This document shows, piece after piece, positions 21,963 through 34,634 of a stretch of DNA of 34,634 nt; within the stretch, counting starts at the first letter, position 1; each line of letters starts with the position of its first letter. The position numbers and the translations under genes are program-made. Source of the stretch: a virus (lineage: Duplodnaviria > Heunggongvirae > Uroviricota > Caudoviricetes); the IMG/VR virus record IMGVR_UViG_2541047873_000007; one strand, written 5' to 3'. The notes under the pieces were generated by a model, which ran no database searches, was not told the DNA's origin, and saw only the letters and a list, made by a program, of their open reading frames with translations.

Positions 21963-22313
21963 TTAAAGCCCCATCGCAACAGCCAGGCAGACCGCTGCAA
22001 CAATCAGTGCACGGCGGATTAACGCAGCAGAAAACACCAGGTGAAGGCCGGTCTGTACCGGGAAACGCCCTTCAGCCATCAGCCTGTCGTCATGTTTCAG
22101 GTACTGACCGGGACGGGCTTTGGGGAAGAGCGAACGGTCAAGCCAGTAACCCAGCACTGCTGCCAGCGTGATGAGTGCCAGCTTGTAGATCACAACAGGC
22201 AGCTGCTGTGGTGAGACCAGAGCGATGGTGCCCAGCAACAGCACTGAGGTCAGCAGCCAGCCGCTGAGGCGAGGTTTTTTAACAGGGGGAATGAATTTTT
22301 TCAGGTTTTTCAT
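21963..22313 (-). CDS. Holin candidate (three predicted transmembrane segments)
   Basis: 116 aa from ATG 22313 with AAGGAG 7 nt upstream; three hydrophobic helices; immediately upstream of the endolysin. Confidence 0.45.
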   Translation of the reverse strand: MKNLKKFIPPVKKPRLSGWLLTSVLLLGTIALVSPQQLPVVIYKLALITLAAVLGYWLDRSLFPKARPGQYLKHDDRLMAEGRFPVQTGLHLVFSAALIRRALIVAAVCLAVAMGL

Positions 22314-22363
22314 GTGTGTCTCCTTATCTGGTGGAGACAGCATCACAAATACAGGGCGCGAAG

Positions 22364-22386
22364 GATTTTAAAGCGCGTTAAGAGAG
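22364..22386 (-). promoter_or_regulatory. Late promoter/activator-site motif C (GATTTTAAAGCGCGTTAAGAGAG), upstream of the holin/lysis operon
   Basis: Shares GATwTTAAAG...TTAAGA with A and B; 51 nt upstream of ATG 22313. Confidence 0.45.
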
Positions 22387-22443
22387 CCGGGGATACGGGA
22401 TGTGCAGGATAAACGATGAATTATTCACAGAGGAGAATACGAT

Positions 22444-22920
22444 ATGACGCACACACTGAATCCGGTCATCACTGTCACTGTGTCCGGTCCTGTGGGCAGC
22501 GGTAAAAGTTACGTACTGGCGCGGATAGAAGAGATGGTGAAACAGGAACTCGGAAACAGCGTCATTGTCGATGCTGCTGACGTGGAGAATGAGCGCCGTA
22601 TGAATGGCGAAGATCTGACGACCTGGCAGAAGCCACGGGGTGGCACAGTGATCAGGCTGGAGGAATACACGGGACAGGGCCTGTTGTCATACGGCGAGGA
22701 GCGTATCTGTCGGACGAATGAGCTGCTGGATGTTATATGCCCCACGGGCCGGCAACCCTGGATACTGCCCGATGCACTGCATGCCACCATTGCGGCACTG
22801 ATGACAGTTTACGATCAGGAGCTGCTCATGAAGGAGTTACGTAAACTCACCGGTCAGCCAACAGAATGTTGTTCGTCTCCGAAGTACGGCAAACAGGAAA
22901 ACGCCCCGGATAATCCTTAA
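22444..22920 (+). CDS. Small P-loop NTPase-like protein with Cys-rich C-terminal half
   Basis: 158 aa; Walker A GPVGSGKS, candidate Walker B SVIVD; GAGGAG upstream of ATG 22444; convergent with the membrane-protein operon. Confidence 0.5.
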   Translation: MTHTLNPVITVTVSGPVGSGKSYVLARIEEMVKQELGNSVIVDAADVENERRMNGEDLTTWQKPRGGTVIRLEEYTGQGLLSYGEERICRTNELLDVICPTGRQPWILPDALHATIAALMTVYDQELLMKELRKLTGQPTECCSSPKYGKQENAPDNP

Positions 22921-22939
22921 GATACCTCCTGAACAGAAA

Positions 22940-22955
22940 CAGCCCTGAAGGGCTG
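22940..22955 (-). terminator. Hairpin CAGCCC-TGAA-GGGCTG between the convergent accessory genes
   Basis: Perfect 6-bp stem directly after the stop of the 196-aa gene; minus strand then reads TTTCTGTTC. Confidence 0.4.
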
Positions 22956-22957
22956 CA

Positions 22958-23539
22958 CTAAAAAAAGAAGTGTATTATTGCCCAAACAGCTATAACGATG
23001 ATTCCCAGCCCAAGAGCCGATTCTAACTTATCTTTGGCAGTCATTTTTACTGTTGTAGCGGGCGCAGGTAAGTCTTGCTGCTGTGGATTTTCTGTTAGTT
23101 GTTTACGAGAAGAAACATCGCCCCTGTTAGTTTGCTTCATGTTGATTACAGATGCGTTATGGGCATTATCAGCAGCAATTGACTGAAGTTTTACAAAAGT
23201 TTTTGAATCTGTTTTAGCCAGAAGTAACCTATTTCCCGTAAACATTGCCTTAAAAGTGATAGTTTTTTTCGTCTTGTCCGCCGCACCAAGCAAACCTCCA
23301 ATGACCAACCCTGCACCACCAAAGATTAATCCACCAAGCAAACCTGCGCCTGCCGCCTTACCTATACGGCTTTCCTCTTCACTATCCGCAAGTTCAATCG
23401 ATAAAAGCTCTTCTTTCAGATTTAATACAATATTTTCAGGAAAGCCTTGTTTTGGTTTTTTGGCAAACACGATGGTACCGAACCCCATGCTTGCCCACCC
23501 TTTAGGAAAACTTCCTGCGATAACCTGAATCCCTGCCAT
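22958..23539 (-). CDS. Membrane protein with glycine-zipper segment (accessory)
   Basis: Central GKAAGAGLLGGLIFGGAGLVIGGLLGA and C-terminal LGLGIIVIAVWAIIHFFF hydrophobic segments; likely start ATG 23539 (AAGGTG 6 nt upstream), the track start 23548 being a GTG. Confidence 0.5.
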   Translation of the reverse strand: MAGIQVIAGSFPKGWASMGFGTIVFAKKPKQGFPENIVLNLKEELLSIELADSEEESRIGKAAGAGLLGGLIFGGAGLVIGGLLGAADKTKKTITFKAMFTGNRLLLAKTDSKTFVKLQSIAADNAHNASVINMKQTNRGDVSSRKQLTENPQQQDLPAPATTVKMTAKDKLESALGLGIIVIAVWAIIHFFF

Positions 23540-23629
23540 GTTCATCACCTTTTACATTAAAATTTCAGAACGCAGCATGATGCCGCCTTTGTCTTTTTTC
23601 TGATCCCATGGTAATTCAGCTGTTATTTT

Positions 23630-24616
23630 CTATTTAAGAATAAAACGGTATTTACTGTCAGGAGTGCTTTGCTGATCAAGTAGCAGTGAACGACATGGAG
23701 CAGTCAAAACCCGAGCATAACTACCATCAGGGCTTATGTTAATGTAACAAACCTTGCCCTTAACACTATAATTTTCGGGGACGGATGCCTTTGCTGATAC
23801 AGTAAATTTAAGGGTATGCCAGCCCGTTTTTTGCTTGTAGCTTGAAACCGAATGGAAATCATCTGAGTACTTATTTAACCCTGGAAACATGCTGCGCAGT
23901 GCGGGGATGGAATCTTCTATTATTTTATCGTTGGTTTTAATGTTAAAAACGCTGGTTTCAGTAGAAGCTACTGCTTTGGCATTTCCCCATTTACCAGCGA
24001 ACACAATCATTCCCACGAAAAATATTGCTACAAGAACTAACACTCCCCCCAACACTACTACATGAGGCTTCCGGCTTCTGGTTGGTACAGTTGCGACTGA
24101 TTTTGCACCGCTTTCCGATGGAGGTGATAGAGTTTTACTCTCATCACGAATATTCAGCAGATCATCAAAATAACCAAACACAGCCTGCAACTGCTCTTTG
24201 TCTAGGCCTTTAAGATGGGTTGTACCGAAATGCTTCAGACAGTATCTGTCACGGTCAAGACGATACCCAGGGTCAGTAAGCGCCATTATTTTGCTGACCA
24301 GAAGATTACAGTCCTTCATATTCTGGATCTGTTGTGCATATCTCTGAAGGATCTCAACCGCACCATGATAATCAGCCGCAGTCATTTCATTAACTGTTTT
24401 GGTATTAAGTTTCGTGTGGATCGTCATCCATAGCTCGCGCTTACTTTCCCCCAGATCAACCAATTCATCCATCAATCTGTGTAAATCGCGTTTTTGCAGC
24501 AACGAAATTGGTTGCTGGGCCGAAGGAAGTATGTCAGCAGAATAGTTATGAATGGTAACATCACCGCTGACAACGTTACCCACATCCCCGTTAACTGTTT
24601 GCTTCTCTTTACTCAT
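23630..24616 (-). CDS. Single-pass membrane protein with cytoplasmic N-domain and extracytoplasmic C-domain (accessory)
   Basis: 328 aa; transmembrane segment VVVLGGVLVLVAIFFVGMIVFAG; ATG 24616 overlaps the repressor stop (ATGA); AT-rich. Confidence 0.5.
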   Translation of the reverse strand: MSKEKQTVNGDVGNVVSGDVTIHNYSADILPSAQQPISLLQKRDLHRLMDELVDLGESKRELWMTIHTKLNTKTVNEMTAADYHGAVEILQRYAQQIQNMKDCNLLVSKIMALTDPGYRLDRDRYCLKHFGTTHLKGLDKEQLQAVFGYFDDLLNIRDESKTLSPPSESGAKSVATVPTRSRKPHVVVLGGVLVLVAIFFVGMIVFAGKWGNAKAVASTETSVFNIKTNDKIIEDSIPALRSMFPGLNKYSDDFHSVSSYKQKTGWHTLKFTVSAKASVPENYSVKGKVCYINISPDGSYARVLTAPCRSLLLDQQSTPDSKYRFILK

Positions 24617-25074
24617 CTTCTCTTGGTATTTTTGTTCATTATTCCACCTGTTCCTATGGTTACGTTACCTTTGATAACATTCCCCAGAACATCTCCATGA
24701 ATAACCTGTTCCGCCCGTTCTCTGGAGGAGCCAGTAGTCAAGGCCGACAAAACTGAACCTTTGACCTGTAATGGTGCCTGCCGGTAGTGCTGCAGTAACT
24801 CCATTTCATCACGTGATAAAGTTATACCTGATGACTCCCCGGTAAGAATGAACTGTACATTGGCCCCAATTCTTGCAAAGGCTGCAAGTAACTCACCTCC
24901 GGGAACAGCAACCCCTCGTTCATATTTCCCCCACATTTCTCTTGAAACGCCACAAAGGGCTGCTACTTCAGCCTGCTTGAGTGATAACCGCGAACGCTCA
25001 GCTTTGAACCGCGACGCGCAAAGAGAATCAAAATTCACATAAACCTCATTGACAATGAGAACAATAGTTCTCAT
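24613..25074 (-). CDS. XRE-family HTH repressor (phage c-like), non-LexA-type C-terminus
   Basis: HTH LSLKQAEVAALCGVSREMWGKYERG; divergent from the ner-like gene; no S24 peptidase motif visible. Confidence 0.7.
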   Translation of the reverse strand: MRTIVLIVNEVYVNFDSLCASRFKAERSRLSLKQAEVAALCGVSREMWGKYERGVAVPGGELLAAFARIGANVQFILTGESSGITLSRDEMELLQHYRQAPLQVKGSVLSALTTGSSRERAEQVIHGDVLGNVIKGNVTIGTGGIMNKNTKRR

Positions 25075-25077
25075 AAT
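25049..25077 (+). promoter_or_regulatory. Early promoter Pe candidate (TTGACA-17 bp-CATAAT) for the ner-to-mor operon
   Basis: Consensus -35 at 25049-25054 and near-consensus -10 at 25072-25077; RBS AAGGAG and ner ATG follow at 25113 and 25125. Confidence 0.55.
25055..25074. promoter_or_regulatory. Operator candidate: palindrome ATGAGAAC-AATA-GTTCTCAT
   Basis: Perfect 8-bp inverted arms spanning the Pe spacer and including the repressor start codon (revcomp of 25072-25074). Confidence 0.45.
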
Positions 25078-25124
25078 CTATCACATATAAAACAAACATC
25101 ATTGCATCAACAAAGGAGACAACA

Positions 25125-25313
25125 ATGACTTCCGAACAAGTTAAAAATCTCTTCCGTCAGCGTGGTATCACGTTTACCCGCTGGGCCGAAGAACACGGCT
25201 ACAGCCGCAATGAGGTCTATCGTGTTCTCAATGGACAGACCAAAGCTCGTTACGGCAAAGCCCATGAAATTGCCGTAAAACTGGGATTAAAACCCACGTC
25301 AAATGCGGCATAA
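25125..25313 (+). CDS. ner: Ner-like DNA-binding regulator
   Basis: 62 aa, ...FTRWAEEHGYSRNEVYRVLNGQTKARYGKAHEIAVKLGL..., Ner/Nlp-like; AAGGAG RBS; divergent from the repressor. Confidence 0.8.
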   Translation: MTSEQVKNLFRQRGITFTRWAEEHGYSRNEVYRVLNGQTKARYGKAHEIAVKLGLKPTSNAA

Positions 25314-25365
25314 ATTTTCCACATATGCAACAGGTTATCACATATTGCAAAAATGGAAATGTGAC

Positions 25366-25674
25366 ATGAGTAAAGTAAATATTTCCAGTTCTGGGACCCG
25401 CATCCTACGTGTACTCAAAGCTCTACGCGGTCATGCTCTGAACGGTGTTTCTAACGGTGAACTGGCATCAGCCCTGGGGGAGTCCCCGGCGAATATCAAT
25501 CGAGCACTTAATACCCTTATTGAAGAGGGACTGGCCATGAAATTAGAGAACGGACGTTTCGCACCGGGAATCCAGTTACTACAGATCGCCATGGCTCACA
25601 GTCACGAGATGGCGCGTGCACAGGATCGTATTAACGAAATCAACCAACGAGTTATTTCAGGTAGTCGTTTGTAA
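25366..25674 (+). CDS. Winged-helix DNA-binding protein
   Basis: TRILRVLKALRGHALNGVSNGELASALGESPANINRALNTLIEEGLA resembles a wHTH; start 25366 or 25303 uncertain. Confidence 0.45.
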   Translation: MSKVNISSSGTRILRVLKALRGHALNGVSNGELASALGESPANINRALNTLIEEGLAMKLENGRFAPGIQLLQIAMAHSHEMARAQDRINEINQRVISGSRL

Positions 25675-25684
25675 GGAGTAATCA

Positions 25685-26599
25685 ATGGGACGCACCAAAT
25701 CACCCGTTAACACTGAACTGAATGTTGAGGTTCCGCTGTCAGATAACATCAATGTCAATTTGAACGCTATGACACAGCATCGCATGGAAATTATGCAGCA
25801 GTTTGGTGATGGACTGCCTTATGAACGTGATCGCATTGTTCACGAAGCACGTTTTTATATGGCGCAGAGTGCTGAATCTATGCTGGAAGCGGGTAAGCGG
25901 CTGATCATCTTAAAAGAAAATGAGCCACACGGTGATTTTACAAACATTTTAGAAAATGAACTCGGACTTGCACCACAAGTTGCTCGCCGCATGATGCAAG
26001 CCAGTATGAAGTTTTTGGGAGAAGGTGATGAGCCAACAAAACGCTCAACGTTGAGCGTTTTGGGGAAAGCCAAACTGTACGACCTGATGGTTCTGGATAA
26101 TGAAGAACTTGATGAATTGGCCGACGGCGGCACAGTTGCCGGCCTGACGCTTGACGACGTTGATCGCATGTCAGTACGTGAATTGCGTCAGGCCCTGCGC
26201 GAAGCGCGCGAAACCAACGCAGCACAACAGCGCGTACTCGCTGACAAAAATGAAAAAATAGACTCACTCTCCACCAGACTGGAGAAGAAATCCCGTATTC
26301 AGCCGCCTGAGCCTGATGAAGAGGTTAAGAAGCTGCGGGCGGAAGTGACAGCATTAGCGGTTGAGGCGGAATCTGCTATCGCCGTTCGACTGTCCAGCGC
26401 TTTTGAGACGCTGTGCGCATATTGTGCTGAAAACATGATTGATACCCCCAGAGACTTCATGGCAGGCCTGGTCTGTCAACTGGAAAGCACAGCGCGTAGC
26501 CTGCGCTCCACATTTGACCTGCCGGATGAGCCAACAGGCAATGCCGCGCCTTCATGGCTGACTGAGCCGACGCCACAGATTAACGGGCTGGAGGCATAA
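25685..26599 (+). CDS. Hypothetical early protein with coiled-coil segments
   Basis: 304 aa, AAGGAG RBS, between the wHTH gene and the transposase; no confident motif. Confidence 0.45.
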   Translation: MGRTKSPVNTELNVEVPLSDNINVNLNAMTQHRMEIMQQFGDGLPYERDRIVHEARFYMAQSAESMLEAGKRLIILKENEPHGDFTNILENELGLAPQVARRMMQASMKFLGEGDEPTKRSTLSVLGKAKLYDLMVLDNEELDELADGGTVAGLTLDDVDRMSVRELRQALREARETNAAQQRVLADKNEKIDSLSTRLEKKSRIQPPEPDEEVKKLRAEVTALAVEAESAIAVRLSSAFETLCAYCAENMIDTPRDFMAGLVCQLESTARSLRSTFDLPDEPTGNAAPSWLTEPTPQINGLEA

Positions 26600-26602
26600 C
26601 CA

Positions 26603-28372
26603 ATGAATGCTGCCCTGACTGAACGACTGGTTTATGTCGCCCGCGCGGCACGTGACGCGGGGCATGGTAAACGCGGTGCAATATACGACGCTGCCTGTGC
26701 TGAACTTGGCATGTCCCGCGCCACTCTGCTGCGCAGGCTGAAGGAGGTCTCTGTGACTGATAAACGCAAAAAACGCGCTGATGCCGGACGCAGCGCCCTG
26801 ACCCGCGACGAAGCCGCGCTGATATCTGCCACACTGCGTGAGGCCACCCGCAAGAACGGTAAGCGCCTCTATTCCATCGCAGATGCAGTGGAAACCCTGC
26901 GGGCTAACGGCTTTATCACCGCAGGCAGAACAGATGAAACCACCGGTGAGTTTTTCCCGTTGTCTGAAGATGCCATCAGCCGTGCTCTGCGTAACTATGG
27001 CCTGCACCCGGAACAACTGGATGCTCCTGCACCGCATACCGAAGTGGCCAGTCTGCACCCCAATCATGTCTGGCAGATTGACGCCTCACTCTGCACGCTT
27101 TACTACCTGAGCAATGGACATAAAGGGCTGCAGGTGATGGACAGCGCGAAGTTCTACAAGAACAAGCCCGCTAACCTTGCCCGTATCGCCAGTGACCGCG
27201 TGTGGAGTTACGAGATTACCGACCATGCCAGCGGCTGGATTTACGTTGAGTATGTGACGGGCGCGGAATCAGGTGAGAACCTGTGTTCTGTGCTTATCAA
27301 CGCCATGCAGGAGCGTGGCGGCGCAGACGTGCTGCACGGCGTGCCAAAAATACTCTATCTCGACCCCGGCTCGGCAAACACCGCGGGTATGACGAAAAAC
27401 ATGTGCCGCTCACTGGGCATCGACCTGATAGCGCACAAGCCGCATAACGCCCGCGCCACCGGACAGGTGGAAAAGGCGCGAGACATTATCGAACGCAAGC
27501 TGGAGCCGGGTCTGAAGTTCCGGCCGGTTCACAGTCTGGAAGAACTCAACGCGCTGGCCGCGAAATGGCGCAGCCACTTTAACGCCACGGCTGTTCACAG
27601 CCGCCACGGTAAAACCCGCACGGATATCTGGCTGAAGATTACTGCTGAGCAGCTGAAAAAAGCGCCTTCCGTTGAGGTATGTCATGAACTGGCTGTGGCG
27701 GCACCAGAACTCCGCAAAGTCACGCCAAAACTTCGTGTCTCGTTCCGGGGCACTGAATTTGACGTATCAACGGTACCGGGCGTACTGGTTGGTGAAAAAC
27801 TGATGATTACCCGTAACCCATGGCGCAGCGATGTGGCACAGGTGGTTCTGACCGGTGAGGACGGCCACGAGACGTTCTTCCTGGTCGAAGAGGTCAGAAA
27901 GAACGAGTTTGGCTTTGCTGAAGGCGCGGCGGTATTTGGCGAAAGTTACAAAGCCCTGCCGGAAACCCCGGCACAGATGGCGGCAAAAGAAACCGAAGCG
28001 CTGGTTACCGGTACAGACAACGCCGCAGATGCAGCCGCCGCACGCAAGGCGAAGGCGCTGCCGTTCGGCGGGCGGCTTGACCCGTATAAACATATCGACG
28101 ACACCACACTTCCGGCCTATATGCCGAAGCGTGGTCAGGCCTCTGACGTACGCGGGCCGCGCACTGAACAACGTCCCATGACTCATGTGGAGGCCGCGAA
28201 AGCCCTGCGCGATAAGTTCAGCGCCGACGGCCTTACCTGGACGCCGGAACATTACCGCCAGTTAACGGCACAGTACCCGGACGGCGTACCGGAAGCCGCA
28301 CTGGATGAAGTCATGGCCACGCTGACCACACCGGCCAGCAGCAGTGTTATCAGCATTGTTAACGGCAACTGA
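26603..28372 (+). CDS. DDE transposase (integrase-core type, transposable-phage A-like)
   Basis: 589 aa; acidic residues in WQIDAS and LYLDPGSANTAG consistent with a DDE core; followed by an ATPase gene; GGAGG RBS. Confidence 0.8.
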   Translation: MNAALTERLVYVARAARDAGHGKRGAIYDAACAELGMSRATLLRRLKEVSVTDKRKKRADAGRSALTRDEAALISATLREATRKNGKRLYSIADAVETLRANGFITAGRTDETTGEFFPLSEDAISRALRNYGLHPEQLDAPAPHTEVASLHPNHVWQIDASLCTLYYLSNGHKGLQVMDSAKFYKNKPANLARIASDRVWSYEITDHASGWIYVEYVTGAESGENLCSVLINAMQERGGADVLHGVPKILYLDPGSANTAGMTKNMCRSLGIDLIAHKPHNARATGQVEKARDIIERKLEPGLKFRPVHSLEELNALAAKWRSHFNATAVHSRHGKTRTDIWLKITAEQLKKAPSVEVCHELAVAAPELRKVTPKLRVSFRGTEFDVSTVPGVLVGEKLMITRNPWRSDVAQVVLTGEDGHETFFLVEEVRKNEFGFAEGAAVFGESYKALPETPAQMAAKETEALVTGTDNAADAAAARKAKALPFGGRLDPYKHIDDTTLPAYMPKRGQASDVRGPRTEQRPMTHVEAAKALRDKFSADGLTWTPEHYRQLTAQYPDGVPEAALDEVMATLTTPASSSVISIVNGN

Positions 28373-28382
28373 GGAGGGAAAC

Positions 28383-29549
28383 ATGCTGGTACTGAAGCAG
28401 CAACTGAAAGAGGCCCGTATTCCACAGGCGGTGGTGGCGAGAGCTGTCGATGTTTCTGAGGCCACGCTGGCCCAGATTGTGAATCATAACGCGTGGCCCC
28501 GCACCAGCCCCGGAGAAGTGCGCCGGCGTCTTGCGTCCTGGCTGGAAAGTCAGGGGATTGATACAACGAAGAGTTTTGATGCTGTACAGGGCGCGGCCAC
28601 GCCCCGTACAGCGGGTACCACAGATAAAACGAGCCTCAGTGAGGAAGAGAATATGTTACTCAAAAAACAGGTGTTATTTCCAGCAACCAAAAAAGCGTTT
28701 GGTCTTTTCCGTGACCCGTTCGCCGACGAAGCCATGCAGGGTTCTGATGATGTGTTCACCACCCCGGACATTCGCTACGTGCGTGAGGCGTTGTACCAGA
28801 CAGCCCGTCATGGTGGGTTTATGGCCGTCATCGGTGAGTCCGGTGCGGGTAAATCCACGCTGCGCCGCGACCTGACTGAACGTATCAACCGCGAGAATGC
28901 GCCGGTAATTGTTATCGAGCCATACATCATCGCTATGGAAGACAACGATGTGAAAGGGAAAACCCTGAAGGCAGCAGCGATTGCCGAAGCCATTATCAGT
29001 ACCATCGCACCACTGGAAAGCATCAGACGCAGTCAGGACGCCCGCTTTCGCCAGTTGCATCGCGTCCTGAAAGACAGCAGCCAGGCGGGGTTCAGCCACG
29101 TTCTGGTGATTGAGGAGGCCCACAGTCTGCCCATTCCGACACTGAAACACCTCAAACGCTTTTTTGAGCTGGAGTCCGGTTTCAAAAAACTGCTGTCCAT
29201 CGTGCTGATTGGCCAGCCGGAACTGGCGACAAAACTGTCTGAACGCAATATGGAAGTCCGTGAAGTCGTTCAGCGCTGTGAGGTGGTCGAACTTCTGCCT
29301 CTGGACAATAACCTTGAAGAATTTCTGACGTTCAAACTGCAACGGGCCGGTAAACAACTGACGGACATTATGGACGCCAGCGCAGTGGATGCCATACGTG
29401 CCCGCCTGAGCAATCCGGGAAGTCATCGTAAAAATATGGTCAGCCTGCTGTATCCGCTGGCCGTCAGTAACCTGGTGATAGCCGCCATGAATCTGGCCGC
29501 TGAAATCGGGGTTCCACAGGTCAATGCTGACGTTGTCAAAGGGGTTTAA
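28383..29549 (+). CDS. AAA+ transposition target ATPase (MuB/TniB-like) with N-terminal HTH
   Basis: Walker A GESGAGKST, Walker B-like HVLVIEEAH; N-terminal ARIPQAVVARAVDVSEATLAQIVN; ATG 28383 with GAGGAGGG RBS (track start 28344 is a GTG). Confidence 0.8.
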   Translation: MLVLKQQLKEARIPQAVVARAVDVSEATLAQIVNHNAWPRTSPGEVRRRLASWLESQGIDTTKSFDAVQGAATPRTAGTTDKTSLSEEENMLLKKQVLFPATKKAFGLFRDPFADEAMQGSDDVFTTPDIRYVREALYQTARHGGFMAVIGESGAGKSTLRRDLTERINRENAPVIVIEPYIIAMEDNDVKGKTLKAAAIAEAIISTIAPLESIRRSQDARFRQLHRVLKDSSQAGFSHVLVIEEAHSLPIPTLKHLKRFFELESGFKKLLSIVLIGQPELATKLSERNMEVREVVQRCEVVELLPLDNNLEEFLTFKLQRAGKQLTDIMDASAVDAIRARLSNPGSHRKNMVSLLYPLAVSNLVIAAMNLAAEIGVPQVNADVVKGV

Positions 29550-29551
29550 TA

Positions 29552-29821
29552 ATGAAATCCACCACAGTTATCAGCCAGCAGATTAACAAAGTGCAGTCAG
29601 CCATTATGGCACTTAAGGCGACGAATACGGATATACAGAGCATCACCATCAGGGGCCATAAACCTGTCATCCGAGTTTCCCGGAGTGCGCATTGCATACA
29701 CATGCTTGAACAGGGGAAAGCCAGTTATCTGTATACCGGTCATGACCACAGGGGTCATTTCCGTCAGGGCGTTTTCGAACTGCACGGCTGTCGCGTCGTG
29801 TGGCCGGAATCTTTGTGGTAA
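29552..29821 (+). CDS. Hypothetical small early protein (kil-like position)
   Basis: 89-aa ORF directly after the ATPase gene; function assigned only by position. Confidence 0.35.
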   Translation: MKSTTVISQQINKVQSAIMALKATNTDIQSITIRGHKPVIRVSRSAHCIHMLEQGKASYLYTGHDHRGHFRQGVFELHGCRVVWPESLW

Positions 29822-29848
29822 TCAGCACAACCGGAGAAATCATAAAAT

Positions 29849-30379
29849 ATGGCAAAAAGTACAAAAGGGGCAAAACGTATCAAGTCCGCAGCGGCACTCT
29901 GGGTACCGGGGACACGCGAAGAGGTCATTGAGGGCATCAGACTGCTCGGTGACGCACAACGTGAACTGGTCAGGGCTGAAACAGAAATGAATGACGCCAT
30001 TGGCGATATCACCGCACGTTATGCCCCGCTCACCGAGAGCCTGAAAAAACGCATGGCCGAACTGCAGTCCGGTATTCAGACATGGTGTGAGGCACACCGT
30101 GATGAACTGACCGGCAACGGGAAGGTGAAGTTCGCTAACCTCACCACCGGCGAGGTGCAGTGGCGAAACCGTCCGCCATCAGTCAGTATCCGTGGGGCGG
30201 ATAATGTTATTGAATTACTGAGACGTCTGGGGCTTGAGCGCTTTATTCGTGTAAAAGAGGAAATAAATAAAGACGCTATCCTGAATGAAAAAGAGGCCGT
30301 GAAAAATATTCCCGGTATTTCCATTAAAAGCGACATTGAGGATTTTTCAATAATTCCTTTTGAGCAGGATGTGCAGTAA
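29849..30379 (+). CDS. gam: Host-nuclease inhibitor Gam (Ku-like DNA-end binding)
   Basis: 176 aa; MAKSTKGAKRIKSAAALWVP...ETEMNDAIGDI...WCEAHRDELT...RPPSVSIRG...GIEDFSIIPFEQ closely matches Mu Gam as I recall it. Confidence 0.9.
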   Translation: MAKSTKGAKRIKSAAALWVPGTREEVIEGIRLLGDAQRELVRAETEMNDAIGDITARYAPLTESLKKRMAELQSGIQTWCEAHRDELTGNGKVKFANLTTGEVQWRNRPPSVSIRGADNVIELLRRLGLERFIRVKEEINKDAILNEKEAVKNIPGISIKSDIEDFSIIPFEQDVQ

Positions 30380-30476
30380 ACACACCACGTTAATTATTTA
30401 ATAAAAACATTTTCTTTTTTATTCCAGCGTCAGCGCCGTGGGCTTCTGCACGCCGGAAACAGAGGAGAATTAAATT

Positions 30477-30671
30477 ATGATATTTAAATGTATTCAGTGC
30501 GAGAGGGATATAACAGCCCTGCGTTTTCACAGCGCCATCGCCGTGATGTCCGGTAAATACCACATCCCTGCGGTACGCGTCACCCTGGTCTGCCCGTACT
30601 GCAGCCAGCATTTTTCGGCGGACGTGCCCGTCATGGAATTCTCCCGCCCTGACAGGGAGGACGCGCAATGA
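30477..30671 (+). CDS. Small zinc-ribbon protein
   Basis: 64 aa with CxxC...CxxC (CIQCERDI ... CPYCSQHF); AGGAG RBS. Confidence 0.45.
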   Translation: MIFKCIQCERDITALRFHSAIAVMSGKYHIPAVRVTLVCPYCSQHFSADVPVMEFSRPDREDAQ

Positions 30672-30940
30672 TTACCCCACAGGAAGCACGACAGCGCACC
30701 CGAACCCTTGTTGAACACTATGTCAACGAGTGTGAATGCCGCAACCTCACCGATGTGAAGCACGTCCTGACGGCACTAATCAGTATGGCCGCTCAGGCCA
30801 TTGTGGCGACCAACGGAAAGGCGGCTGCCCTGCAGGTACTGGTGAACACACTCACCCACACGGCAGAGCATGAGGTGCCGTACCGGATGGAAACCACTGC
30901 AGAAGGCGGCCTGCACATCACCGTCAGCCGGAAGCACTGA
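30668..30940 (+). CDS. Hypothetical early protein
   Basis: 90-aa ORF, translationally coupled to neighbours. Confidence 0.4.
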   Translation: MITPQEARQRTRTLVEHYVNECECRNLTDVKHVLTALISMAAQAIVATNGKAAALQVLVNTLTHTAEHEVPYRMETTAEGGLHITVSRKH

Positions 30941-30949
30941 GGGCGCGGC

Positions 30950-31246
30950 ATGACACGGAACACCATACTCACCCGCACCGCCCTCTACCGTCTGGCCCTG
31001 CAGCGTTTCGGGCCGGACGCACAGGCCCTGAAACTGACAGAAGAGGCCGCTGAACTGGCGGCCAGTGCTGCCCGCAATCTGAACGGACAGGGCAGCGAAA
31101 GTGACCTCGCGGCAGAGCTGGCAGACGTGGAAATCATGACAGAGCAATTGCGCCTTCAGGGGATGGACCGGCTGATTGACTTCCACAAACAGAAAAAACT
31201 GGAACGTCTGGCTGCACGACTGGGCGTGATTTACACGAACGAGTAA
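30950..31246 (+). CDS. MazG-like NTP pyrophosphohydrolase (small all-alpha type)
   Basis: 98 aa with EEAAELAAS ... ELADVEIM, matching the EExxE...ExxD signature. Confidence 0.5.
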   Translation: MTRNTILTRTALYRLALQRFGPDAQALKLTEEAAELAASAARNLNGQGSESDLAAELADVEIMTEQLRLQGMDRLIDFHKQKKLERLAARLGVIYTNE

Positions 31247-31260
31247 CCGGGAGGCATTCA

Positions 31261-31476
31261 ATGGCTGACATACTCAGGGAAATCACCGCATGGACACTGA
31301 TTCTTACTGGCCTGGCGACATGCCTCAGTGCGGGGGCAGCCCTGGCTGCCCTGCTGATGCACATAACAACACAGTGGTTATGGGAAAAGCTTAAAGCAGC
31401 ATACAGCCTGAAAGAGCTGTCCGACGCTGTCCGGGCATGGAAACGGCAGAAAAATACCGGAGATACAGAACAATGA
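31261..31476 (+). CDS. Small membrane protein
   Basis: 71 aa with hydrophobic segment WTLILTGLATCLSAGAALAALLM. Confidence 0.4.
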   Translation: MADILREITAWTLILTGLATCLSAGAALAALLMHITTQWLWEKLKAAYSLKELSDAVRAWKRQKNTGDTEQ

Positions 31477-32156
31477 CAGACCAGAATAAACACATTGAGA
31501 AACTGAAAAAGTTGCTGGCGCTGGCCGCATCCGGCAACCCGCACGAGGCCGCTCTGGCACTGCGCCGAGCCCGTAAACTGATGGATGTTCACGGCATCAC
31601 ACATTCCGACATTGCTATGAGTGATATTGATGAAACCATCAGTCATTACTGGCCGACAGGCAGTCTCCGTCCACCGCGCTACATGCTGGGCCTGATGAAC
31701 ATCATCCGCGAGGCATTTGGTGTTAACTCCATCATTCACCCCGGCACGCATCCGTCTGTGGGGTTCTACGGTAACCGGGAACGAGCGGCACTGGCTGCAT
31801 ACACCTGGGAAGTGCTGGTCCGCCAACTGAAAAAGGCGCGTCAGCAGTATATCAGCGCACAGAACAAAAGAATAAAAAACGCCACCCGTACCAGCCGTGG
31901 AAACCAGTTTGCTGAAGGCTGGGTACTGGCCGTTATCAGTGAAATACAGTCCTTTGCCCTGACCGATGATGAGCGTGAACTGATGCAACAGTGGCTGGAA
32001 CATAAATACCCGCAAACGCAAACCACCAGGGCGCGTAAACCGGGAAGAAGCCGCAATGGCGACGCCTCGCGCTATGCGGGGTTTCGTGAAGGGCAGAACG
32101 TCAGACTGCACCGCCCGGTCAGTGGGCAGGAACAACAGAAACTGGAGGCCAGATGA
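31473..32156 (+). CDS. Hypothetical early protein (helical N-terminal domain)
   Basis: ATG 31473 (GGAGATA upstream), N-terminus IEKLKKLLALAASGNPHEAALALRRARKLM. Confidence 0.45.
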   Translation: MTDQNKHIEKLKKLLALAASGNPHEAALALRRARKLMDVHGITHSDIAMSDIDETISHYWPTGSLRPPRYMLGLMNIIREAFGVNSIIHPGTHPSVGFYGNRERAALAAYTWEVLVRQLKKARQQYISAQNKRIKNATRTSRGNQFAEGWVLAVISEIQSFALTDDERELMQQWLEHKYPQTQTTRARKPGRSRNGDASRYAGFREGQNVRLHRPVSGQEQQKLEAR

Positions 32157-32383
32157 TTACGCTATCAGGTAACAGCCGGAAATTAAAAGCCTGCCGAATA
32201 TCTGCCAGATACCTTTTTGCCCGCGCCTTTTTTAAGAACGTCAGGCCGGGGATCACAATTGGTGTTATTGCCGGACGCGAACAGGTTGAAAAATACATGT
32301 CAGGTGCATGGTGGAATAACGACCCTGTCATTGCTGCCCGTAATATTCATATCGAATGGGGAGGTATTCAGAATGACTACTGA
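32153..32383 (+). CDS. Hypothetical protein
   Basis: 76-aa ORF overlapping both neighbours. Confidence 0.3.
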   Translation: MITLSGNSRKLKACRISARYLFARAFFKNVRPGITIGVIAGREQVEKYMSGAWWNNDPVIAARNIHIEWGGIQNDY

Positions 32384-32579
32384 AACCATTGTCTGTTTTC
32401 TTTTCTGGTATATGTACGCAGGATCATGCAGCGCAAGACTTCATCGTTCCCTGGGCTATGGCAGGCACTACGACACCGCGCATTACATCCTGTACATGAC
32501 CGCCGTCATGTTGTTCTGGCCAGTCACCCTGCCAGCTGCAACCGACATTGTTGCCGACAGACTGAAAAAAAGGAGATGA
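32373..32579 (+). CDS. Small membrane protein
   Basis: 68 aa from ATG 32373 (GGAGG RBS), two hydrophobic segments. Confidence 0.35.
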   Translation: MTTETIVCFLFWYMYAGSCSARLHRSLGYGRHYDTAHYILYMTAVMLFWPVTLPAATDIVADRLKKRR

Positions 32580-32580
32580 T

Positions 32581-33030
32581 ATGCAGAAAAAACGCCTGAT
32601 ACAGCTTATCCATATTGCCCGTAATGAACTGGGTATGGATGAAGACACCTACCGCCAGATGTTACAGGGGCTGACCGGTAAAGCCTCAACCAAAGGAATG
32701 GATACCACACAACTAAACTGCGTGCTGGAATCCATGAAAAAGAAAGGCTTTCGCGTTAAACCAGCCAGAAAAGCCAGCTCCGGTTTACCGCTGGATAACC
32801 ATCCGCAGTCCAGGAAAATTCGTGCGCTATGGCTTGAAATGGCTGCTGCCGGCATTGTTCGTGACCGTTCAGAAAATGCATTAGCGAGGTGGATCAAGCG
32901 GGAAACGGGCATCAGCGCCCTGCGCTGGCTCAGTACTGAACAGGCAAGCAGTGTTATTGAGAAACTGAAGAAGTGGCAGCGCAGAGCTGCGGGAGTCAAA
33001 CATGAGCGACCTGAATCAGTTTCGAAGTAA
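32581..33030 (+). CDS. GemA-like regulatory protein (Mu gp16 family)
   Basis: 149 aa; position immediately upstream of mor; AGGAG RBS. Confidence 0.65.
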   Translation: MQKKRLIQLIHIARNELGMDEDTYRQMLQGLTGKASTKGMDTTQLNCVLESMKKKGFRVKPARKASSGLPLDNHPQSRKIRALWLEMAAAGIVRDRSENALARWIKRETGISALRWLSTEQASSVIEKLKKWQRRAAGVKHERPESVSK

Positions 33031-33391
33031 GGGGCCGGAACTCCTGGTGGAACTGGCACAGCATACCTCTGAGACCGTTCGCGAGATTATTGATATTGAG
33101 CCCGAAGTTGCCGACCAGATTGGTCAGGCCGTCGCGAACCGAATGATGCAGGTCTGGGGCGGGCAAAACGTTTATTTCCCGATGGGCATGGTATGGAAGG
33201 TCAGTCAGCGCGACCGGGAAATCTTCAGGGAGTTTAACGGACGCAACCACCACGAACTGGCCCGCAAATTTGGTGTTTCGCTTCAGTGGGTCTACAGCGT
33301 GGTTAAGCGGGTAAGAAAAGAAGAACTGGATCGGATGCAGGGCAAGCTATTTGCTGATGAACCCGATGCAGATACGGAGAAAAAAGAGTAA
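33002..33391 (+). CDS. mor: Mor/C-family transcription activator
   Basis: 129 aa; C-terminal ...QVWGGQNVYFPMGMVWKVSQRDREIFREFNGRNHHELARKFGVSLQWVYSVVKRVRKEE matches the Mor/C HTH region. Confidence 0.8.
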   Translation: MSDLNQFRSKGPELLVELAQHTSETVREIIDIEPEVADQIGQAVANRMMQVWGGQNVYFPMGMVWKVSQRDREIFREFNGRNHHELARKFGVSLQWVYSVVKRVRKEELDRMQGKLFADEPDADTEKKE

Positions 33392-33400
33392 TATCTGCAA

Positions 33401-33477
<77 letters not shown>

Positions 33478-33478
33478 A

Positions 33479-33553
<75 letters not shown>

Positions 33554-34634
33554 CCCAGACCGGCCAGGTGTGCGGCATAAACAGTACTTCCGCGTCGTTA
33601 CCCCACATATCCAGCGTTTCGTTCAGGTACTCGGTCCACTTGCTGGTATCGCGGGTTTTCGCGCCGCGCAGAGTGTAGAAGTTGTGCAGGGTATGCGTGG
33701 CGTTCTCGGCGGTACACAGGGCTTTCAGGGCCGGAATATAGAAGTGCATTTCGGCTGGCGCTTCGCTACCCGGAGTCATCAGGAAGTCAAACTCCAGGCC
33801 GTCGATAATCATCTTCTCGCCAGTTCTGACGATAGTTTTAGTCGGTGCAATAATGCTCGGGTCGCCGGTTGCCAGCGTCACGCCCAGGCCATTACCCACG
33901 TTGCCTTGCGCGTTGTGCGGCAGTAACAGACCGTAAGAGTAGAGCGCACGGCGGCTCATAATATTACCCGCCAGCACGTTTTCGCTGATGGCTTCGTCCA
34001 TAAAGCCTGCCGGAGCGATCACCTGCACTTTGCCGGATTTAACATCCGCTTCAGAGATAATGCCTTTCACACCGCCATAATGGTCGGCGTGGCTGTGGGT
34101 GTAAATAACAGCAACAATCGGTTTTTGCGGACGATGTTGGAAGTAAAGGTCAAGTGCGGCTTTTGCGGCAGGCGGCGTCACCAGTGGGTCGATAACAATA
34201 ATGCCTTTCTCGCCCTCAACGAATGTAATGTTAGAGATATCCTGGCCGCGCACCTGATACATTTTATCGGTGACTTTGAACAGGCCAGAAATGCCGTTGA
34301 TCTGCGACTGACGCCACAGGCTGGGGTTTACGGTTTCCGGCGCAGCGGCATTAATATCAAATTTGTAATCATTCGCGCGGTAGTAAACTTTGCCGTTAGC
34401 ATCACGCAGAATACCTTCATCCAGCAGCGGGGCGATAAATCCACGCTGGGCATCGTCAAAATCTTGACGATCGCTAAACGGTAATGATTTGGCGTAATTC
34501 TGATTAATCTGTTGGGTATATTGAGTGGCGGCTTTCGCTTCATCTGTTGCGTAAGCGGTATTTACCATCATGCCGCTGGCGGCAGTTAACGCAATAACAA
34601 TCCTGCTCAAACGGAATAACCGAGAGTTATTCAT
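33554..34634 (-). pseudogene. yjcS: Host MBL-fold alkyl/aryl-sulfatase gene (YjcS/SdsA1-like), 5' portion only
   Basis: Signal peptide [29 protein letters not shown] and metal site [11 protein letters not shown]; frame ends after ...HTWPVW with 10 codons of prophage-end sequence, far short of a full-length enzyme. Confidence 0.7.

Follow-up and report, generated by a model that had tools for sequence, protein, structure and literature searches.

A variable early gene block between the B and GemA genes of a Mu-like Escherichia coli prophage

The virus record IMGVR_UViG_2541047873_000007 provides a stretch of 34,634 nucleotides (nt), referred to here as the window, and we have compared a block of its early genes (positions 29552-32579) with those of related phages and prophages. 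The block lies between the gene for a B-type transposition AAA ATPase and those for GemA and Mor, is tiled by nine open reading frames (ORFs) on the + strand (o1, Gam, and o3 to o9; Table 1), and is likely to be the semi-essential early region of a Mu-like, BcepMu/B3-type transposable prophage of E. coli. The gene order, with B followed by a kil-like gene, gam, small genes, gemA and mor, corresponds to that of Mu, and the analogy with the Mu semi-essential region drawn in the original prediction is correct. Placement of the prophage as BcepMu-type rests on the taxonomy line of the Escherichia phage PhiKM record and on comparison with B3-like phages.

Mosaic organization of the early block

Comparisons were made with 24 related loci from other Enterobacterales, anchored on GemA, and with 160 viral IMG/VR loci, 80 of them anchored on DUF3164 and 80 on Gam (32 and 34 clusters, respectively, at 90% identity). 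In the closest relatives A and B share 93-95% amino acid (aa) identity with the window proteins, Mor 95% and GemA 84-89%, whereas the genes of the block are either 38-73% identical or absent. Nucleotide identity to the relatives, computed in 100-nt windows, is 84-92% up to position 29592, falls to 66-69% in o1, at most 47% at the Gam position, 63-76% in o3, o5 and o7, and 43-47% in o9, with gaps at o4, o6 and usually o8, and is again 82-92% from position 32593. The borders of the mosaic fall within ~40 nt of the ends of the block. For A, B and Mor the synonymous divergence (dS) is 0.4-0.5; the genes of the block reach values of 1.1-2.6 or saturation. The ratio of non-synonymous to synonymous divergence (dN/dS) is 0.09-0.26 for those that have syntenic homologues in the relatives, as expected of purifying selection. 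These values indicate that the block genes are functional and that their alleles derive from more distant lineages.

The interval between B and GemA ranges in the relatives from 691 to 3941 bp, the smallest version being that of Photorhabdus, in which an o3-like Zn-ribbon gene is present alone; A, B, GemA and Mor are still present in natural variants whose interval is reduced to this one gene. In the 160 viral loci the order A-B-o1-[Gam or DUF3164]-o3-o4-MazG-o6-DUF2786/7168-o8-o9-GemA-Mor is kept and it is the occupancy of the slots that varies. The description of these genes as accessory holds on all three counts: the size of the interval, the collapse of identity at its borders, and the variable cassettes within. 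We propose that the block would have evolved by slot-wise gain, loss and allele replacement of cassettes between fixed anchors, B on the left and GemA on the right. By analogy, this variability matches that of the regions of genomic plasticity of Pseudomonas Mu-like phages, which hold accessory genes (PMC4378225). Those regions, and the nin region of lambda, consist of short, packed, dispensable ORFs at fixed left or early-arm positions, like the small genes of the block, which are probably dispensable too, and the plasticity-region ORFs, as here, are unique to or common to some members only; however, the plasticity regions were defined in D3112-like phages, where the anti-CRISPR cassettes lie in the late region rather than the early arm. 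The block hardly varies within E. coli, 607 of 641 matching records being at 95-99% identity.

All of the elements named in the original prediction are present where it had placed them: Gam, a Zn-ribbon protein, a MazG-like protein, small membrane proteins and several unassignable ORFs. The translational coupling that it described is also borne out, with four overlaps, short gaps and one real gap. ATGA overlaps occur at the o3/o4, o6/o7 and o7/o8 junctions, o8 and o9 overlap by 11 nt, and the remaining junctions have gaps of 1-27 nt apart from the 97 nt that separate Gam from o3. Each of the nine ORFs matches a PHROG family (E 1e-34 to 1e-77) and the RefSeq gene calls are the identical nine genes, which together with the dN/dS values argues that these are not chance ORFs. 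The GC content of the block resembles that of the phage backbone. An NCBIfam scan gave a usable match for none of the nine ORFs, and PDB searches with o1, o5 and o7, by single sequence or narrow profile, returned nothing meaningful, no PDB relative of o5 being among their results. We note that the longest ORF of the region, which has 333 aa and a TTG start, runs antisense to o6 and o7 (31134-32135, - strand). Codon and GC bias most likely account for its presence, and together with two further antisense ORFs (30776-31261 and 30390-30668) it was rejected as a gene, all three lacking a Pfam match.

In Mu (NC_000929, 4.3-9.2 kb) the corresponding genes are B, kil, gp6-gp9, gam, gp11-gp14, gemA and mor, which occupy the same place in the operon with the same packing of small genes. 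Only three shared proteins are found by direct search, Gam (62% identity), GemA (36%) and Mor (30%); tblastn against Mu does not detect the A and B proteins of the window. Kil lies directly after B in Mu, the position at which the window has a probable Kil homologue, and a small Zn-ribbon protein may be shared between o3 and Mu gp6 (a weak hhalign match, at 53% probability). In contrast, counterparts of gp7, gp8, gp9 and gp11-14 were not found in the window, Mu is without the MazG-like and DUF2786/DUF7168 genes, and the window operon runs outward to the prophage end whereas in Mu the late genes come next.

The B3-like phages JBD25 and H72 infect a different host genus (Pseudomonas) and have A and B proteins 57% and 54% identical, respectively, to those of the window, and an o7 homologue at 34%. 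In JBD25, H72 and B3 the order is A-B-small genes-[Gam or DUF3164]-DUF2786 gene-...-GemA-...-Mor, and transcription runs toward the end of the genome. JBD25 gp08 is a small Zn-ribbon protein that matches the o3 family, but its gene is upstream of the Gam slot rather than downstream as here, and homologues of the MazG-like protein, o4, o6, o8 and o9 were not detected in the B3-like phages. When o4, o5, o6, o8 and o9 were compared with Mu gp6-gp14 and gp18-19 and with the JBD25 early genes, no profile-profile match exceeded 4% probability.

Table 1. Features of the early arm and right end of the prophage, with coordinates in the window.
Feature	Coordinates	Strand	Description and matches
Divergent HTH (helix-turn-helix) repressor gene	24613-25074	-	HTH_31/HTH_3
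Candidate early promoter	25049-25077	+	TTGACA-17-CATAAT, 11/12 (consensus scan)
First early HTH gene	25303	+	DUF3102 gene next
Transposase A	26603-28372	+	rve-type
B-type transposition AAA ATPase	28383-29549	+	AAA_22, 3.6e-20; left anchor, conserved flank
o1	29552-29821	+	89 aa, basic, isoelectric point (pI) 9.9; phrog_2041, listed 'unknown'
Gam	29849-30379	+	176 aa, predicted double-stranded DNA (dsDNA)-end-binding host-nuclease inhibitor; PF07352
Conserved leader upstream of o3	30408-30476	+	~70 nt, within the sole real intergenic gap
o3	30477-30671	+	64 aa, four-Cys Zn-ribbon (CxxC...CxxC)
o4	30668-30940	+	90 aa; phrog_3691, 3.6e-55
o5	30950-31246	+	98 aa, single domain, MazG-like; phrog_2245 'NTP pyrophosphohydrolase', 2.8e-34
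o6	31261-31476	+	71 aa, predicted single-pass membrane protein; KD19 1.98, residues 12-36
o7	31473-32156	+	227 aa, basic, pI 10.2; DUF2786 + DUF7168
o8	32153-32383	+	76 aa, basic, pI 10.1; phrog_3681, 1.3e-54
o9	32373-32579	+	68 aa, probable two-segment membrane protein; peak KD19 1.52
GemA	32581-33030	+	PF06252, 8.3e-41; right anchor, conserved flank resumes
Mor-family late-transcription activator	33002-33391	+	PF08765, 1.3e-43; last gene of the early operon
Prophage right end	33392-33553		ends ...TCA at 33553; homology of the relatives stops there

The Gam slot and candidate host-directed proteins

Gam is clearly recognizable, as originally noted. Residues 23-169 align with positions 1-148 of the 149 in the PF07352 profile (E 9.9e-41; 139.6 bits, cut-off 28.3), a full-length match, and the protein is 62% identical over 169 residues to Mu gp10 and 67% identical to the Gam proteins of H72 and JBD24, with 64 invariant columns across seven Gam proteins. 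It is more conserved across phage types (62-67%) than are the transposition proteins. Mu Gam binds dsDNA ends and counters host exonucleases/RecBCD (PMC4872102), and by homology to this characterized protein the Gam of the window would shield linear phage DNA from RecBCD-type exonucleases by capping its ends.

A more complex relationship is seen when the Gam position is compared between loci. In 12 of the 24 genome loci it is taken by a 203-aa DUF3164 protein (PF11363, 3e-80), Gam is present as in the window in five, and none has both; the DUF3164 relatives are L004-L015 and L024 (e.g. L005:4949-5560). Neither do the two occur together in any of the 160 viral loci, in which GemA lies within 6 kb in 75 of the 80 loci of each set. 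The slot sits between the o1-like gene and the o3/DUF2786 genes, and is seen also in L028:2941-3594 versus L030:2942-3460. The B3-like Pseudomonas phages show this exchange as well, with Gam in H72 and DUF3164 in JBD25, independently of the enterobacterial BcepMu-like prophages. The shared slot and the mutual exclusion suggest that DUF3164, a domain for which no functional information was found in the literature, may be a functional substitute for Gam.

The first gene of the block, o1, is probably a remote homologue of Mu kil. It starts 2 nt past the stop codon of B, and Mu kil starts 18 nt past that of its own B. Mu Kil alone matches the o1 family with an hhalign E value of 0.0022, and a Kil family profile, built from 17 unique sequences of the fetched loci, aligns with the o1 family end to end over 70 columns (probability 85.9%, E 5.3e-6). 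Both families share the C-terminal motif L(H/N)GC(R/Q)(I/V)(I/V)W. They are further connected by a bridging group of proteins (e.g. that of L162) that are matched by the Kil-only hidden Markov model (HMM) at 2.6e-4, by the o1 HMM at ~6e-14, and by both PHROG families, phrog_2041 and phrog_2743 (Kil). A relationship of o1 to Mu gp9, the product of the gene before Mu gam, was rejected, similarity being absent. A host-killing phenotype of Mu Kil is reported in the older literature. From its remote homology and position, o1 could act in the manner of Kil and arrest or kill the host, Mu Kil being annotated as a septation inhibitor (NC_000929).

The o1 gene also differs in its recent history within E. 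coli phages. The early operon of PhiKM is 98-100% identical to that of the window, but its o1 allele (L002:4153-4422) is only 89.9% identical at the amino acid level, with a dS of 0.26 as against ~0.03 in the flanks. A diverged allele amid near-identical flanks points to an allele exchange that was recent and confined to the Kil-like gene.

The product of o5 is predicted to be an all-alpha nucleoside triphosphate (NTP) pyrophosphohydrolase of a divergent subfamily within the MazG/DCTPP1/HisE superfamily, as supported by its motif and transitive Pfam matches and, less clearly, by its modelled fold. It carries the metal-binding acidic motif pattern of the superfamily, EExxE...ExxD; E31, E32, E56, D59 and E61 are invariant in its 15 close homologues, and in 65 distant relatives (31-54% identity) no substitution is seen at E31, D59 and Q66, with conservation of at least 90% at E32, E35 and E56. 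Structure-based searching, offered in the original prediction as a way to check it, led from o5 to MazG-type structures and from o7 to a weak KH-like resemblance. The AlphaFold2 model of o5 (mean predicted local distance difference test score, pLDDT, 79) has two long helices, and in Foldseek searches of the PDB ranks 1-4 and most of the best-ranked structures are DCTPP1, HisE, MazG (1vmg, 5ie9), AF1178, YpjD and E. coli MazG, with E values of 0.13-3, probabilities up to 0.99 and template modelling (TM) scores of ~0.5. An exhaustive profile search recovers 10,831 representative relatives at E <= 1e-3 and 2,072 at E <= 1e-10; among the 65 that were scanned, six reach PF03819 MazG, two PF12643 and one PRA-PH, and the wide o5 profile matches the Bacillus MazG structure 5ie9 at E 0.013. 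The Pfam MazG models miss most of the 65 scanned family members, o5 included, and in some relatives the domain forms the C-terminal part of a longer protein (140-290 aa). In the two viral sets of 80 loci each, a MazG-like gene is found in this slot 26 and 25 times.

A possible role for o5 is indicated by Atd1, a MazG-like pyrophosphatase of Pectobacterium phage PcCB7V that hydrolyses ppGpp, the resulting (p)ppGpp depletion protecting against TIR-STING and retron-TIR toxicity (bioRxiv 10.1101/2022.06.09.495361). Like o5, Atd1 is a short, phage-encoded, single-domain MazG-type protein with twin acidic motifs. Unlike o5, it comes from an unrelated phage in which it is found beside nucleotidyltransferase (NTase) genes; a close sequence relation between the two is undetectable, and Pectobacterium phages are absent among the five phage records that match o5. 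Going by its catalytic motif and this precedent, o5 would remove a nucleotide, most likely an alarmone such as (p)ppGpp, or else a non-canonical or signalling nucleotide, and such removal would blunt a host stress or abortive response.

Other genes, expression and prophage context

The Zn-ribbon assignment of o3 is supported by two CxxC pairs (C5, C8, C39 and C42) that are invariant in 12 homologues, and no specific Pfam family was found above cut-off. It is the only gene of the block retained in the minimal Photorhabdus versions, in which it is the sole gene (L018 and L020-L022), and its family matches JBD25 gp08, a 66-aa protein encoded beside the Gam/DUF3164 slot (hhalign probability 86.8%, E 4.3e-6). 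The conserved leader upstream of o3 accompanies it whether Gam or DUF3164 precedes, and holds a T-rich run and an imperfect hairpin. A structured RNA was considered for the leader and rejected, since shuffled sequence folds as well as it does (z -1.0) and no Rfam family matches it; a promoter consensus is also absent from it.

Both domains of o7 score above their Pfam cut-offs, DUF2786 (PF10979) at residues 8-44 with 43 bits (cut-off 23.9) and DUF7168 (PF23771) at residues 46-189 with 92.7 bits (cut-off 25.5). The predicted structure (pLDDT 84.5, predicted TM score 0.75) has an N-terminal helical hairpin corresponding to DUF2786, then a beta-alpha-beta-beta-alpha core and long helices. The core resembles a KH domain weakly, but o7 was rejected as a KH domain, the GxxG signature being absent. 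B3-like, D3112-like, Ralstonia and Curvibacter transposable phages encode homologues of 34-37% identity in their early arms, and the architecture also occurs in lytic phages, among them phiM12, PhiW-14 and MTx, and in actinophages. In the literature DUF7168 is not discussed and no function for DUF2786 was found. Given the presence of o7 in distant transposable and lytic phages, and the profile match of o3 to the JBD25 protein, o3 and o7 look like older, general phage components rather than host-specific inhibitors.

The other four genes are best explained as sporadic cassettes, two of which would encode membrane proteins. The o4 gene is found in one of the 24 genome loci and, within the two sets of 80 viral loci, in 8 and 17; o8 is found in three of the 24 genome loci (77-79% identity). 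No genome locus has o6, which is present in 13 of the 80 Gam loci and none of the 80 DUF3164 loci, and so occurs in Gam-carrying relatives only. The o9 protein is 35-44% identical in relatives, with a conserved ELHR loop in an alignment of seven homologues. Two small membrane proteins had been expected in the block, and of these o6 is a clear case and o9, by its peak hydropathy, a borderline one.

Expression of the block is most simply explained by a single early transcript, running from ~25.05 kb to a T-run after Mor, of which the block would form the distal part. The candidate promoter precedes the first early gene and extends into the beginning of the HTH repressor gene, which is divergent. 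A consensus scan of the + strand gave no other strong sigma-70-like site ahead of the block, and we infer that this one acts as the early promoter, Pe. The same scan gave no convincing internal promoter or terminator inside the block, and RNA families of Rfam are absent from 22000-34634. Loss of the divergent repressor would allow transcription from ~25.05 kb through the HTH, DUF3102, A and B genes, then over the nine genes of the block, finishing with GemA and Mor at the prophage end. With overlapping or abutting stop and start codons coupling their translation, we propose that all nine products would be made early, alongside the transposition machinery.

The late genes are on the - strand, from ~22 kb down to position 1, and the 4 kb at 29400-33450 are 100% identical to several E. 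coli chromosomes. Matching DNA is present in 640 of 5426 complete E. coli genomes (about one in eight, ~12%), mostly at 95-99% identity. The record of PhiKM (PQ738613) is classified as Bcepmuvirus; its block is 98.2% identical to that of the window and was annotated with the same genes, and a literature search returned no paper describing PhiKM. Beyond the prophage end, the 1081 bases at 33554-34634 belong to the host gene yjcS (alkyl sulfatase), which is interrupted by the prophage and leaves a truncated ORF at 33522-34634 on the - strand. In other strains the same prophage is in a GH10 pseudogene and in ulaF, and these differing sites are consistent with insertion by transposition. In PhiKM an ORF directly after Mor (L002:8188-8532) is annotated as 'Fe2+ ABC transporter permease protein 2'; since the prophage of the window ends at that position, this is probably a flanking or misannotated ORF in what is described as a 'partial genome' record.

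At the opposite end of the early arm, GC content is 0.42-0.45 at ~23000-26000, the immunity region, as against 0.53-0.60 elsewhere. Just downstream of the HTH repressor gene and on the same strand is a 328-aa ORF (23630-24616, - strand) with no Pfam match, a candidate moron or accessory gene expressed in the lysogen.

Alternative readings and implications

The original prediction had suggested host-takeover or anti-defence functions for the block as a whole, and this fares differently from gene to gene. A host-takeover or counter-defence role is supported for Gam, probable for o1, and plausible for the MazG-like o5 through the Atd1 precedent; for o3, o4, o6, o7, o8 and o9 no tie to defence was found.

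Several observations weigh against the reading of the block favored here. A functional lead is absent for six of the nine proteins, and a host-specific takeover role for o7 is made less likely by its presence in lytic phages that infect unrelated hosts. The link of o1 to Kil is remote, with identity of ~14% and an hhalign probability of 86%; o1 is the best match of the Kil-only HMM in the window but scores only E 0.32, and a direct PHROG scan assigns o1 to phrog_2041, which is not a Kil family. For o5, the substrate is not predictable from the sequence, the E values of the fold search are all above 0.1, and the protein is below every direct Pfam cut-off (PF03819, PF12643 and PF01503, the PRA-PH model giving 14.5 bits against 21.3) and below that of NCBIfam (hisI, 14.3 against 42.7 bits); the earlier MazG-like call is supported for family membership by motif and transitive matches and tentatively by fold, and does not hold at the level of a direct Pfam cut-off. 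Finally, the single early operon is taken from a simple consensus scan.

The strongest alternative, which we nonetheless regard as unlikely, is that o1, o3, o7 and o9 are phage-internal helpers, in transposition-replication, DNA handling or early-to-late regulation, and that only Gam is host-directed. The basic o7 with its weakly KH-like core would fit such a function, as would its location between the Gam/DUF3164 slot and GemA in B3-like phages (JBD25 and H72, adjoining the slot), in the D3112-like JBD24 and here, the retention of o3 in minimal versions, and the strong purifying selection. However, many relatives without o7 or o1 keep A, B, GemA and Mor, so that these genes are probably dispensable for the basic cycle, o7 has no GxxG signature, and the link between o1 and Kil suggests a host-directed function.

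Less probable again is that the whole block is an anti-defence island, in which o3, o4, o6, o7, o8 and o9 are mostly inhibitors of immune systems, comparable with the anti-CRISPR loci of Pseudomonas Mu-like phages. Early expression, small size, hypervariability between conserved anchors and the counter-defence precedents for Gam and for the MazG-like enzyme are all compatible with it, as are the accessory plasticity regions of the Pseudomonas phages (PMC4378225). But apart from Gam the ORFs match no known anti-defence protein, and the block is nearly invariant within E. coli. In addition o7, and o3 by remote profile, are common to distant transposable phages, and o7 to lytic phages also, which is atypical of narrow-spectrum inhibitors.

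We consider it very improbable that these are genes for lysogenic conversion, superinfection exclusion or defence, expressed by the prophage for the benefit of the host. Prophages often carry morons, and the block has its two small membrane proteins; against this, the genes are within an early lytic operon, downstream of the transposase genes and without a promoter of their own, and they resemble the phage backbone in GC content. Since PADLOC defence models match none of the nine proteins, the reading as prophage defence was rejected. That several of the short ORFs are not genes, with coding elsewhere as in the antisense ORF described above, is scarcely credible: the longest ORF is indeed antisense and the PhiKM annotators called one antisense ORF, but the antisense ORFs match no Pfam family, and it is the + strand ORFs that all match PHROG families and that show dN/dS values typical of selection and conserved functional residues in syntenic homologues.

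We favor a semi-essential early region of the Mu kind, in which host-directed and general phage genes would be mixed. A bolder and tentative proposal, doubtful as a whole, is that it holds at least two unrecognized host-directed activities, with o1 (the phrog_2041 or 'HI_1482' family) as a divergent Kil that arrests the host and o5 as an Atd1-type counter to abortive infection, for example by alarmone depletion, and, linked to these, that DUF3164 is a non-homologous substitute for Gam in protection of DNA ends.

As part of a common E. coli prophage the region is routine: it is of a well known kind, and its genes are already in RefSeq under the same domain names. What is new is the link to Kil for a family labelled 'unknown' (phrog_2041), a firmer MazG call for a very small enzyme whose family of more than 10,000 representative sequences has no directly covering Pfam model, and the alternation of Gam and DUF3164, which suggests a function for a widespread domain. 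The block provides a compact and naturally modular set of early genes, three of which have testable assignments, and since the DUF2786/DUF7168 protein spans many phage types, a tractable E. coli prophage is a good place to study it.

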